64,000 nucleotides of DNA, from the NCBI RefSeq assembly GCF_044324875.1, contig NZ_CP172185.1; one strand, given 5' to 3'. The notes beneath the pieces were generated by a model. The model saw only the letters and a program-made list of their open reading frames with translations. It made no database searches and was not told where the DNA came from. The stretch comes from Escherichia coli. Its GTDB lineage: Bacteria; Pseudomonadota; Gammaproteobacteria; Enterobacterales; Enterobacteriaceae. Below are positions 4,093-61,165 of the stretch, piece after piece; the first letter of the stretch is position 1, and each line of letters begins with the position of its first letter. Position numbers and translations under genes: made by a program.

Positions 4093-4120
4093 GATGAAAA
4101 AGCCGCCTGAGAAGGCGGCT
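4093..4120 (-). terminator. Intrinsic terminator downstream of exuT
   Basis: Hairpin AGCCGCC-TGAGAA-GGCGGCT at 4101-4120 followed on minus strand by UUUUUCAUC. Confidence 0.6.
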
Positions 4121-4150
4121 TTGAAGGGAAACTAAAACTTACACGAAGCC

Positions 4151-5449
4151 TTAATGTTGCGGTGCAGGATCGTTATGTGTTTCCTGCGCCACCTCAATCG
4201 CCGGTTTGTTCTGCAACACGGTCCAGATAACCAGTGCACCTAACAGGTCGAACACTGCCAGAACTGCGAACAGCGGGCTGAAGCCGATGGTGTCAGCCAG
4301 TGCACCGACAACCAGCGCAAACAGCGTACTTGCCAGCCATGCGGACATCCCGGTTAAACCGTTTGCCGTTGCCACTTCGTTACGACCAAACACGTCAGAA
4401 GAGAGCGTAATCAGCGCGCCAGACAGTGCCTGGTGAGCAAAACCACCGATACACAGCAGCATAATCGCGACATACGGGTTGGTGAACAGACCGATCATAC
4501 CCGGGCCAATCATCAGCACAGCACCCAGCGTTACGACCATCTTACGGGAAACGATCAGGTTCACACCAAACCAACGCTGGAACAGCGGCGGCAGGTAACC
4601 ACCGAGGATACAACCGAGGTCAGCAAACAGCATCGGCATCCAGGCAAACATCGCGATCTCTTTCAGGTTAAAGCCGTAAACTTTAAACATGAACAGCGGG
4701 ATCCACGCGTTAAAAGTACCCCATGCCGGTTCTGCCAGGAAGCGCGGCAGCGCGATACCCCAGAACTGACGGTTACGCAGGATCTGACCAACGGACATTT
4801 TCTTCGCTGTGTCAACCTGGTGCTGGGCTTCCTGACCATTAATAATGTAGTCGCGTTCTTCATCGGTCAGATGCTTCTGGTCGCGCGGATGTTTATAGAA
4901 AATCAGCCATGCCATCGCCCAGATAAAGCTCAATGCACCGGAGATGATAAATGCCATCTGCCAGCTGTGCATTACGATTGCCCATACCACCAGCGGCGGT
5001 GCAATCATCGCACCAATCGAAGAACCTACGTTAAAGTAACCTACCGCGATGGAACGCTCTTTCGCCGGGAACCATTCGGAGCTGGCTTTCAGACCCGCCG
5101 GGATCATCGCTGCTTCCGCGGCACCGACCGCACCACGAGCAACAGCCAGGCCGCCCCAGCTACCTGCCAGCGCGGTTGCACCACAGAATACGGCCCACAG
5201 TACAGCAAACATTGCGTAACCGATTTTCGTACCCAGCACATCCAGTACATAACCTGCTACCGGTTGCATGACCGTATAAGCAGCAGAATAGGCTGCGATG
5301 ATATAGGAATACTGTTGGGTGGAGATGTTTAACTCTTCCATCAGAGTTGGCGCAGCTGCCGCCACAGTGTTACGCGTCAGGTAACCAAGCACGGTGCCGA
5401 GCGTCACCAGTGCGATCATATACCAACGTAACCCTTTAATTTTACGCAT
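4151..5449 (-). CDS. exuT: Hexuronate (galacturonate/glucuronate) MFS transporter ExuT
   Basis: Track ORF 4151..5569; start taken at ATG 5447-5449 (MRKIKGLRWYMIALVTLG...) preceded by SD GAGG; 432 aa, 12-TM MFS. Confidence 0.85.
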   Translation of the reverse strand: MRKIKGLRWYMIALVTLGTVLGYLTRNTVAAAAPTLMEELNISTQQYSYIIAAYSAAYTVMQPVAGYVLDVLGTKIGYAMFAVLWAVFCGATALAGSWGGLAVARGAVGAAEAAMIPAGLKASSEWFPAKERSIAVGYFNVGSSIGAMIAPPLVVWAIVMHSWQMAFIISGALSFIWAMAWLIFYKHPRDQKHLTDEERDYIINGQEAQHQVDTAKKMSVGQILRNRQFWGIALPRFLAEPAWGTFNAWIPLFMFKVYGFNLKEIAMFAWMPMLFADLGCILGGYLPPLFQRWFGVNLIVSRKMVVTLGAVLMIGPGMIGLFTNPYVAIMLLCIGGFAHQALSGALITLSSDVFGRNEVATANGLTGMSAWLASTLFALVVGALADTIGFSPLFAVLAVFDLLGALVIWTVLQNKPAIEVAQETHNDPAPQH

Positions 5450-48064: not shown

Positions 48065-48886
48065 ATGAGCGATATGCACTCGCTGCTGATAGCGGCAATA
48101 TTGGGTGTGGTCGAAGGATTGACAGAATTTCTGCCGGTATCCAGCACGGGCCATATGATTATTGTCGGTCACTTGTTGGGATTTGAGGGCGACACGGCGA
48201 AAACCTTTGAAGTGGTGATCCAGTTAGGATCAATTCTGGCGGTAGTAGTGATGTTCTGGCGGCGTCTGTTTGGCCTGATTGGCATCCACTTTGGCCGCCC
48301 GTTGCAGCACGAAGGAGAAAGCAAAGGCCGTTTAACGCTGATCCACATTTTGCTGGGGATGATTCCGGCGGTGGTACTGGGGCTGTTGTTCCACGACACG
48401 ATTAAGTCGTTGTTTAATCCAATAAATGTGATGTATGCGCTGGTCGTTGGCGGTCTGTTGCTGATTGCCGCTGAATGCCTGAAACCAAAAGAACCGCGTG
48501 CGCCGGGTCTCGATGATATGACCTATCGTCAGGCGTTTATGATTGGCTGCTTCCAGTGTCTGGCGCTGTGGCCGGGTTTCTCTCGCTCCGGGGCGACCAT
48601 TTCAGGTGGGATGCTGATGGGGGTGAGCCGTTACGCTGCTTCCGAGTTTTCGTTCCTGCTGGCGGTGCCGATGATGATGGGCGCAACGGCGCTCGATCTC
48701 TACAAAAGCTGGGGCTTCCTGACAACCGGCGATATCCCGATGTTTGCCGTTGGGTTTATCACCGCTTTTGTGGTGGCGCTGATAGCGATTAAAACCTTCC
48801 TGCAATTGATTAAGCGCATTTCGTTTATACCGTTCGCCATTTATCGCTTTATTGTGGCGGCTGCGGTGTATGTCGTGTTCTTTTGA
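48065..48886 (+). CDS. uppP: Undecaprenyl-diphosphate phosphatase UppP (BacA)
   Basis: Track ORF 48062..48886 starts at TTG; conserved start ATG 48065 ([30 protein letters not shown]...), 273 aa. Confidence 0.9.
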
Positions 48887-48929
48887 GGTAAAGAACAGTG
48901 TCGGATGCGTGGAATTGTCAACGATTGCG

Positions 48930-49058
48930 TAGGCCGGATAAGGCGTTCACGCCGCATCCGGCAATCAACGCCTGATGCGACGCTCGCGCGTCTTATCAGG
49001 CCTACAACTGTCGTTGACATGTAGCCGGATAAGGCGTTTACGCCGCATCCGGCAAAAT
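48930..49058. repeat. BIME: three REP palindromes in alternating orientation between uppP and cca
   Basis: GTAGGCCGGATAAGGCGTTCACGCCGCATCCGGCAATC / GCCTGATGCGACGCTCGCGCGTCTTATCAGGCCTAC / GTAGCCGGATAAGGCGTTTACGCCGCATCCGGCAAAAT. Confidence 0.8.
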
Positions 49059-49067
49059 ATCCAACAC

Positions 49068-50306
49068 TCACTCAGGTTTTGGGCAACGCTGTTCCTTCCA
49101 GCTGGCTACCGCCGCAATCCGCCGTCGGGTCAGCTCCTCGCGAATCTCCACACCTTTAAATCCCGCTTCAACGACGGCTTTTGTCGGCACTGACTGTGCC
49201 ACTTCCCAGGCTTCGCGCAACCAGCGGCCTTGCGGGTAGTCCGCTGATTCAAAACCGGTTCTGCCGCGCACATCAGCCTCACTGGTCAGCGCCAGTTGCT
49301 CGACACGCTGCGGTTTACGCCAGGCGTCAATGGAATCAAACAATTTGACGATGGTTTTTGGGTTCAGCATTGGGAAGGTGTGGATGAGATCGTGAAACTC
49401 AGCCACCAGTCTGGCTAAATCGCGAATTTCATTTGGCACGCGCAGACGCTGACAGAGTTGTTCCACTAACTTAACACCCGCCGGGCCATGACCATGATGA
49501 CGCGGCCAAAGTTCTGGTGGCGTCAGTCCTTTACCGAGATCGTGGCATAACGTCGCAAAACGGACATCGACCTGCGGACTTAGCATCGCCGCCATGGAGA
49601 GCGTCATTAAGGTATGAATACCGGTGTCGATTTCCGGATGCCACCTGGCAGGGGCCGGAACGCCAAACAGGGCGTCAATTTCCGGGAATAAAACGCGCAG
49701 TGCGCCGCAATCGCGCAGTACCTGGAAGAACACCTGGGGATTGCGGGTAGTGAGGGCGCTTTCCGTCTCTTTCCACACCCGTTCAGGCGTCAGGTGTTCC
49801 AGTTCACCCGCGTGGGTCATCTCGCGCATCAGCGCCAGAGTTTCATCGGCAATACGAAAACCGAGGTGGGCATAACGCGCAGCAAAACGCGCCACGCGCA
49901 GTACGCGTAACGGATCTTCGCCAAAAGCGGGGGATACATGGCGCAACAGACGATTTTGCAGATCGCCCAGACCGTTGTACGGGTCGATAATCTCGCCGTT
50001 ATCGTCCTGGGCCAGCGCATTAATGGTCAGATCACGACGCTGAAGATCATCTTCCAGCGTGACATCCGGTGCGGCATAGCAGGTAAAACCGGTGTAACCG
50101 GAACCGGATTTCCGTTCGGTACGTGCCAGCGCATACTCTTCATGCGTTTGCGGATGCAGAAAAACAGGAAAATCGCGGCCTACCTGCTGGTAGCCCGCGT
50201 CGAGCATCTCCTGTGGCGTACTGCCGACCACCACCCAATCTCTGTCTTTGACCGGTAGCCCTAACAATGCATCCCGAACAGCACCACCGACCAGATAAAT
50301 CTTCAC
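49068..50306 (-). CDS. cca: tRNA CCA-adding nucleotidyltransferase / phosphohydrolase Cca
   Basis: Track ORF 412 aa [34 protein letters not shown]... Confidence 0.9.
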
Positions 50307-56877: not shown

Positions 56878-56956
56878 CCGGAAAGCGGTTCACAGATCTC
56901 GCTTCGAACCTGGCAGGCCTATTGACGCTGTTTTTTTTCAACCTAAAGTAAAGGAA

Positions 56957-57100
56957 CAAGGGTGAGGGAGGATTTCTCCCCCCTCTGATTGGCTGTTAAT
57001 AAGCTGCGAAACTTACGAGTAACAACACAATCAGTATGATGACCAGCTTCATCATAACCCTTTCCTTATACAAGGCCCCTTCTTCGGGAGGGGCTTTCCC
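56957..57100 (+). ncRNA. sibE: Sib-family antisense sRNA (antitoxin), hldE-proximal copy; ends approximate
   Basis: Promoter TTGACG(56922)-N16-TAAAGT(56944); terminator GCCCCUUC-UUCG-GGAGGGGC + UUU at ~57076-57100; fully overlaps the opposite-strand ibs ORF; symbol assigned by position, from memory. Confidence 0.55.
56996..57055 (-). CDS. ibsE: Ibs-family 19-aa hydrophobic type I toxin peptide (MMKLVIILIVLLLVSFAAY)
   Basis: Reverse-strand ATGATGAAGCTGGTCATCATACTGATTGTGTTGTTACTCGTAAGTTTCGCAGCTTATTAA; too short for the ORF track; which ibs paralog is a positional guess. Confidence 0.65.
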   Translation of the reverse strand: MMKLVIILIVLLLVSFAAY

Positions 57101-57332
57101 GTTTCAGCCCCTTGCTGACTCCCCGATTGTTGATGAGCGCCAGACCCCGCGCAATGCTTTCCCTGATGCAGTTTTGCCTTCCCCGAGCCGTCACGCAAAA
57201 TGCTGCAACAGCCTGATCATTTGCACCTTTTAGCGGAACGCAGATATAAAAAATCCCCGGCTTTTTGGGCCAGGGATGTGGGATAGAGAAACCTTCTTGA
57301 CGCTGATTTTTTTTCAACCTAAAGTAAAGGAA

Positions 57333-57478
57333 CAAGGGTAAGGGAGGATTTCTCCCCCCTCTGAATTGGTTGTTAATAAGCCTGGAAACTTACTAGTAAC
57401 AACACAATCAGTATGATGACGAGCTTCATCATAACCCTTTCCTTCTATAAGGCCCCTTCTTCGGGAGGGGCTTTCCCG
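57333..57478 (+). ncRNA. sibD: Sib-family antisense sRNA (antitoxin), yqiK-proximal copy; ends approximate
   Basis: Promoter TTGACG(57297)-N17-TAAAGT(57320); same UUCG-loop terminator at ~57452-57478; symbol assigned by position, from memory. Confidence 0.55.
57373..57432 (-). CDS. ibsD: Ibs-family 19-aa hydrophobic type I toxin peptide (MMKLVIILIVLLLVSFQAY)
   Basis: Reverse-strand ATGATGAAGCTCGTCATCATACTGATTGTGTTGTTACTAGTAAGTTTCCAGGCTTATTAA; differs from copy 1 at residue 17 (A vs Q) and by synonymous changes. Confidence 0.65.
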   Translation of the reverse strand: MMKLVIILIVLLLVSFQAY

Positions 57479-60904: not shown

Positions 60905-61165
60905 AGTGAACCCGCTTATTCTCAGGGCGGGGCGAAATTCCCCACCGGCGGTAAATCAACTCAGTTGAAAGCCCGCGAGCGCTTTGGGTGCGAACTCAAA
61001 GGACAGCAGATCCGGTGTAATTCCGGGGCCGACGGTTAGAGTCCGGATGGGAGAGAGTAACGATTCTGTCGGGCATGGACCCGCTCACGTTATTTTGGCT
61101 ATATGCCGCCACTCCTAAGACTGCCCTGATTCTGGTAACCATAATTTTAGTGAGGTTTTTTTACC
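60905..61165 (+). promoter_or_regulatory. FMN riboswitch (RFN element) leader of ribB
   Basis: Conserved RFN segments AGGGCGGGGCGAAATTCCCCACCGGCGGTAAA ... AGCCCGCGAGCGC ... GGACAGCAGATCCGGTGTAATTCCGGGGCCGACGGTTAGAGTCCGGATGGGAGAGAG upstream of ribB ATG. Confidence 0.8.

Follow-up and report, generated by a model that had tools for sequence, protein, structure and literature searches.

REPs and BIMEs have been catalogued in Escherichia coli for decades. A single REP is an imperfect palindrome of 30-40 nt that carries a conserved GTAG at the 5' foot of its stem and a mismatch inside the stem (Ton-Hoang et al.). In BIME-2 elements y and z2 REPs are combined in inverse orientation around a short linker, their flanking linkers are variable in length and sequence, and their copy number differs between strains (Ton-Hoang et al.). 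REP325, located between yjdM and yjdN, is such a BIME-2 array; it comprises six units, and one of them, in which a Z2 hairpin comes after a Y hairpin, corresponds to the naRNA4 model (Qian et al.). BIME-1 elements (RIP) belong to the same REP superfamily and consist of y and z1 REPs with a long IHF-binding L linker. The REPINs of Pseudomonas are REP doublets that form hairpins. Here, we analyze a cluster of three REPs found between uppP and cca of E. coli. It is an ordinary representative of an element type already described, and the preliminary description of this locus was right save for one detail of its bracketing. We consider it highly probable that the 181-bp gap harbours a BIME-2-type cluster of 1.5 units, with putative roles in 3'-end protection, gyrase action and translation.

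Within the window, i.e. the whole analyzed stretch of 64,000 nucleotides, positions 48700-49300 are 100% identical to E. coli strain 042. According to the open reading frames and the RefSeq annotation of 042, where uppP is named bacA, both genes converge on the gap as had been proposed. In MG1655 this gap corresponds to coordinates 3203130-3203309, and the distance between the cca stop codon and the stem of REP3 is the same there. The positions of the particular features are collected in Table 1.

Table 1. Features of the uppP-cca gap, its flanking genes and further REP sites in the window
Feature	Position	Strand	Basis or remark
uppP (bacA), undecaprenyl-diphosphate phosphatase	48065..48886, stop ends 48886	+	ORF and RefSeq annotation of the identical 042 stretch
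Half-REP remnant TGTCGGATGCG, left arm of an older REP ("REP0")	48899..48909	+	Complementary to CGCATCCGGCA of REP1 and REP3
Inverted repeat, left arm TGTCAACGA	48916..48924	.	9/9 complementary to right arm
REP1, y type, GTAGGCCGGATAAGGCGTTCACGCCGCATCCGGCAA	48929..48964	+	5' GTAG; aligns to Y hairpin of Rfam RF02564
Head-to-head linker TCAAC, REP1-REP2	48965..48969	.	Sequence
REP2, z2 type, inverted, GCCTGATGCGACGCTCGCGCGTCTTATCAGGCCTAC	48970..49005	-	Ends CTAC on + strand; aligns to Z2 hairpin of RF02564
Tail-to-tail linker AACTGTCGTTGACAT, 15 nt, REP2-REP3	49006..49020	.	Contains right arm of the inverted repeat (49011-49019)
Inverted repeat, right arm TCGTTGACA	49011-49019	.	Inside the 15-nt REP2-REP3 linker
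REP3, y type, GTAGCCGGATAAGGCGTTTACGCCGCATCCGGCAA	49021..49055	+	Direct repeat of REP1
Spacer, 14 nt, cca stop codon to first REP3 stem base (49053)	49054..49067	-	Counted on sequence
cca, tRNA nucleotidyltransferase	49068..50306, stop codon 49068-49070	-	ORF and RefSeq annotation
REP, y type	15873-15902		REP pattern search
Short perfect palindrome from REP head arm	16821-16841		REP-like
fadH	16857-18875	-	
Degenerate z2-like REP	19006-19036		REP-like
y-variant REP	20972-21001		REP pattern search
ygjK	21014-23365	-	
Three degenerate REP units	34705-34793		REP-like

All three units of the cluster show the typical signs of REPs, namely GTAG (CTAC when inverted) and an interior stem mismatch of the AA/GC type. 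REP1 and REP3 are direct repeats with 31 of 32 positions identical (97%), REP3 having lost one G directly after GTAG, and REP2 is inverted in relation to both. The consensus of REP1 and REP3 matches five times in the 64-kb window and that of REP2 once, compared with no match in 100 shuffles each. Together with these direct and inverted repeat relations this supports the earlier statement that three REPs in alternating orientation occupy the interval. For each REP a hairpin of about -21 kcal/mol is predicted irrespective of the strand, and folding of the two strands of the 150-nt cluster gives -79.9 and -79.7 kcal/mol (z-scores -8.3 and -6.9). The tail-to-tail linker carries a small palindrome of its own (TGTC...GACA). 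Members of this REP family are highly repeated: a 601-nt query over the locus yielded at least 40 matching pieces in 4353 records, with a median of at least 39 places per genome. In AR_0015, Nissle and W224N the place of the half-REP remnant is occupied by a complete or nearly complete REP0 palindrome.

Besides this cluster the window contains seven further REP sites, which lie in gaps between genes. The five that had been listed before are all REPs or REP-like sequences (Table 1). The other two were not in that list; they are a y-like REP at 35531-35560 in the divergent nfeF-nfeR gap and a REP at 37270-37302 in the convergent rpoD-mug gap (genes named after the 042 annotation). Also unlisted was the half-REP remnant upstream of REP1.

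The window and strain 042 are not identical throughout, as a segment of about 1.9 kb is additionally present between fadH and ygjK, where 042 has a gap of 170 bp. That this extra segment is flanked by REPs agrees with our search, which located one at each of its ends, the degenerate z2-like REP and the y-variant REP of Table 1. Its open reading frame of 513 amino acids (19180-20721, minus strand) gave no Pfam match. At least 80% of window positions 16700-21100 was found in 252 of 5426 genomes, with a best identity of 99.3%. In the closest genome (NZ_OZ547136.1) a transposase of the IS1397 family is annotated inside the fadH-ygjK region. IS1397 is an insertion sequence that targets REPs and BIMEs, and the presence of such a transposase would fit with REP sites serving as insertion points.

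The assignment of the cluster among the known elements follows from its REP types and their arrangement. The Rfam model naRNA4 (RF02564) matches positions 48932-49002 of the plus strand over all 77 model positions with 83.1 bits (gathering score 59.5). In this alignment the REP1-REP2 pair is covered end to end, with near identity between REP1 and the first hairpin and between REP2 and the second one. The gap thus contains a y and a z2 REP in inverse orientation that match naRNA4 and the REP types and orientation by which BIME-2 is defined, and the whole cluster is therefore composed of y, inverted z2 and y, i.e. 1.5 BIME-2 units. The preliminary reading as a BIME is borne out by the same alignment, by the alternation of the units and by the short head-to-head linker. 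Among the linkers observed the head-to-head type is short (5-7 nt) and the tail-to-tail type is locus-specific. Variable tandem copies, as expected for BIME-2, are present in the form of alleles with one, three or four REPs at this locus. Judged by its REP types and their orientation, the cluster is of BIME-2 type, be it in the strict sense or as an atypical BIME. A BIME-1 element does not apply to the gap of the window, in which there is no L-like sequence and no z1 REP.

In the uppP-cca cluster y and z2 REPs alternate and are joined head to head by a short linker as in REP325, and the intergenic position at gene ends is shared too; both hairpins are nearly identical in sequence and the copy number is strain-variable as well. 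Unlike the six units of REP325 there are only 1.5 units here, the head-to-head linker is 6 nt shorter in the Rfam alignment and the tail-to-tail linker is unique to the locus. BIME-1 is approached by an alternative allele of the gap (Nissle, AR_0015), which aligns with a REP plus an L-type linker (TGCAATATAyTGAATTT), in contrast with the allele of the window that has neither L linker nor z1 REP. Like in REPINs, two inverted REPs can make one long hairpin, which in the case of REP1-REP2 is lengthened by a flanking stem of 9-10 bp. Unlike in REPINs, the flanks are unique to the uppP-cca locus and there is no evidence of doublet and flanks as a copied unit.

Since the Rfam match lies above the gathering score, the cluster might also encode a nucleoid-associated RNA of the naRNA4 kind that bridges DNA cruciforms together with HU. 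An RNA composed of one Y and one Z2 hairpin, and even its complement, was found to condense DNA with HU, and about 80% of REPs are transcribed (Qian et al.). The naRNA4 model represents exactly one BIME-2 unit, however, so that any y-z2 pair will match it, and the match shows membership in the REP family (a y-z2 unit) and not function. Moreover, a consensus scan of positions 48600-49400 detected no sigma-70-like promoter site in or beside the gap, the head-to-head linker deviates from that of REP325 as mentioned above, and the element is missing at this place in half of the E. coli genomes. With these points in mind we regard a gene for such an RNA as quite improbable and retain the assignment as a BIME-2-type cluster.

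The Rfam search also detected other RNA features in the window. Two tandem SIB RNA genes are located at 56922-57070 and 57297-57447 on the plus strand (RF00113, 145 and 142 bits); SIB RNAs are the antitoxin RNAs of the Ibs/Sib type I toxin-antitoxin pairs. An FMN riboswitch is found at 60914-61062 on the plus strand (RF00050, 120.9 bits) and a tRNA gene at 36524-36596 on the minus strand (RF00005, 73 bits), which is tRNA-Ile in the 042 annotation. A weak RNAI-like match at 4094-4197 on the minus strand (29.5 bits versus a gathering score of 47, E = 0.18) probably arose by chance.

The detail that has to be corrected concerns the short inverted repeat that was thought to bracket the cluster. 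The repeat itself is real, its two arms being complementary at 9 of 9 positions, but it encloses REP1 and REP2 only and not the entire cluster because its right arm sits in the REP2-REP3 linker. A match of this length between the 42-nt left flank and the 15-nt linker appeared in 19 of 20000 shuffles, which makes chance unlikely. With its arms the pair of REP1 and REP2 is predicted to fold into one long hairpin of -58.9 kcal/mol, compared with about -42 kcal/mol for two separate hairpins. Such features, together with the action of TnpA(REP) on pairs of a REP and an inverted REP in vitro (Ton-Hoang et al.), would be consistent with REP1-REP2 and its 9-nt ends forming a REPIN- or MITE-like mobile unit that was transposed into the gap as one piece.

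Yet the distribution of the junctions between flanks and REPs argues against this idea, as the whole unit including its ends does not occur at several loci. A 49-mer over the right arm is single-copy in the 2700 genomes that possess it (median 1; a maximum of two in a few of them), and a 35-mer over the left arm is single-copy per genome in 141 genomes. The pattern of arm plus REP tail was also searched in one genome per species for 100,044 species, a scan that met no E. coli locus and thus says nothing about E. coli itself; all its matches but one, a contig of 261 bp, fell on the uppP-cca locus of Escherichia sp. E1V33 and E. whittamii. In O157:H7, E1V33 and E. whittamii an A-to-C exchange changes the left arm to TGTCCACGA, and the resulting mismatch is uncompensated because the right arm is unchanged in all three. 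In alleles of the W224N, UTI89 and LF82 type (355 genomes) the left arm is replaced by REP sequence. Furthermore, a direct-repeat target duplication was not seen. Thus, the mobile unit is largely refuted already and we attach only a very small probability to it. The comparison of alleles at the locus revealed no sign of selected pairing in the 9-nt repeat. As far as the sequences can tell, the evidence speaks against this repeat as the end of a mobile element or as a helix under selection; it is locus-specific and extends a possible foldback of REP1 on REP2 without an evident selected function.

The 261-bp contig mentioned above (NZ_BPQJ01000238.1) derives from an assembly of Methylobacterium frigidaeris and carries REP3-REP2-REP1 together with a BIME-1-type L linker and a z1-like REP. 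Most likely it represents contamination with E. coli DNA or a chimeric short-read assembly.

As to the origin of the 9-nt repeat, template switching was considered, but the bases beside the 9-mer mismatch a contiguous copy and this origin stays speculation. There is a second, outer inverted repeat formed by GTGTCGGAT (48898-48906) and ATCCAACAC (49059-49067) that is complementary at 8 of 9 positions, has all three REPs between its arms and is paired when the complete gap is folded to minimum energy. Since MG1655 and O157 have another sequence at its right-hand side, it is probably without meaning. From the same complementarity one could imagine an insertion of the entire cluster into the loop of REP0, the older element. 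This scenario was set aside as unsupported, given the different right-hand sequence of MG1655 and O157 and the fact that W224N possesses a REP0 right arm of its own on the left side.

A census of the gap in 5426 complete E. coli genomes reveals at least five allelic states. The y-z2-y allele accounts for about 50%: the REP2-REP3 junction is present in 2700 genomes, among them 042, MG1655 and O157:H7, with gaps of 180-181 bp. Within these 2700 genomes 355 keep a nearly complete REP0 upstream of the cluster and so exhibit a four-REP allele in a gap of 187 bp. A single y REP in a gap of 89 bp is found in HMDUC-17, NCTC86 and several ETEC strains. Its share of about 140 genomes (approx. 2-3%) was obtained by subtraction of those with the REP2-REP3 junction (2700) from those found with the 601-nt query (2841), and a similar value results from 1 of 40 rows of a spread listing. 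The direct query for this form gave 855 genomes, which is an upper bound only as pieces from three-REP genomes were joined by BLAST. Recombination between REP1 and REP3, which are direct repeats, is a possible explanation of the single-y form. In 1293 genomes (24%), including AR_0015 and Nissle 1917, the gap of 80 bp contains REP0 and a unique sequence that aligns to the L-type linker of BIME-1. Finally, 1260 genomes (23%), e.g., LP5-1, E24377A and O104:H4, possess a gap of 162 bp with an unrelated GC-rich repeat that occurs at a median of five places per genome. This repeat may resemble boxC. The directly counted classes add up to 5394 of the 5426 genomes.

The three-REP allele is also present in E. 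whittamii and Escherichia sp. E1V33 and must therefore be old or have been exchanged between species. Variation of linkers and copy number of BIMEs between strains has been published before (Ton-Hoang et al.). The comparison of REP copy number across strains suggested for this site thus resulted in one, three or four REPs or in other repeats, and the view of the gap as a hotspot of recombination or insertion is supported by the number of its states. In W224N, SCU-485 and APEC17 the stem of REP3 shows a paired change from GGCG/CGCC to GACG/CGTC that keeps the hairpin and lets the inner stem of this y REP resemble z2. Either selection for a paired stem or a conversion from some other REP could be behind this change.

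The location of REPs directly after two convergent genes leads to the ends of the transcripts. The palindromes could themselves terminate the uppP and cca transcripts in both directions as an intrinsic (Rho-independent) terminator, as GC-rich hairpins follow directly on both strands after both genes, but this is scarcely credible: inspection of the sequence found no T run after any REP on either strand, a scan of 48600-49400 detected neither an intrinsic-terminator-like site nor a GC-rich hairpin followed by a U tract on either strand, a Rho-dependent termination region of the bacA strand was mapped beyond the gap in MG1655, and bicyclomycin-induced read-through in vivo has already been seen on one strand.

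The reading favoured here is a BIME-2-type cluster that would act on transcripts terminated elsewhere. The Rho termination region of MG1655 is located at 3202814 on the minus strand, antisense to cca (score 5.5, p = 1.9e-7; Adams et al. 2021, supplementary file 2). Transcription on the bacA strand would reach this point 315 nt after leaving the gap, and this fits with read-through of the cluster and subsequent termination by Rho. The supplements of Adams et al. list no RNA 3' end at MG1655 coordinates 3203000-3203499, a range that includes the gap. Rho-terminated mRNAs of E. coli were shown to end, once trimmed by exonucleases, directly behind stable stem-loops, REPs among them, and such stem-loops protect the 3' ends of these mRNAs (Dar and Sorek). 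Additionally, gyrase cleavage is over-represented in BIME-2 elements, mainly at y REPs (Topo-seq paper, Sutormin et al.). According to a paper citing Liang et al. 2015, REPs less than 16 nt away from a stop codon were reported to stall terminating ribosomes and to lower translation.

By analogy, both convergent transcripts, from uppP and from cca, would run into the REP cluster and would be terminated by Rho further downstream within the antisense of the opposite gene. The 3'-to-5' exonucleases would then trim them back to the REP hairpins, which would define and stabilise the 3' ends of both mRNAs. At the level of DNA the y REPs are candidate gyrase sites in a place where positive supercoils accumulate by convergent transcription, and gyrase action at the y REPs of such a convergent gap appears plausible. 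REP3 may damp the synthesis of Cca because its distance of 14 nt from the cca stop codon falls within the reported limit of less than 16 nt. The role in transcript-end formation is likely, gyrase action and damping of Cca may be added to it, and all of them are carried over from REPs in general. As the cluster exists in only about half of the genomes, none of the proposed roles can be essential to uppP or cca.

The proximity of a REP to a stop codon depends on the allele. A REP hairpin is located within 15 nt of the stop codon of cca (14 nt) in the allele of A, D and E type and of uppP (12 nt) in that of Nissle type, and in the B1 type this applies to neither gene. One could speculate that the gap represents a lineage-specific switch point where three unrelated repeat families, namely the BIME-2 cluster, a truncated BIME-1 and the GC-rich boxC-like repeat, shift which of the two genes has a stop-proximal REP hairpin. 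At present we consider such a switch improbable. If the rule of stop-codon proximity applies to this gap, the alleles would differ in the post-transcriptional level of Cca or UppP that they set.

The negative outcome of this analysis is useful in that the cluster needs no new explanation. A match to naRNA4 of Rfam at this place should not be taken as a gene call, nor is the short inverted repeat the end of a transposon. The census provides a small and clean example of how one intergenic gap contains different repeat families across a species, and its alleles could be used as natural variants to test how REPs affect the expression of neighbouring genes.
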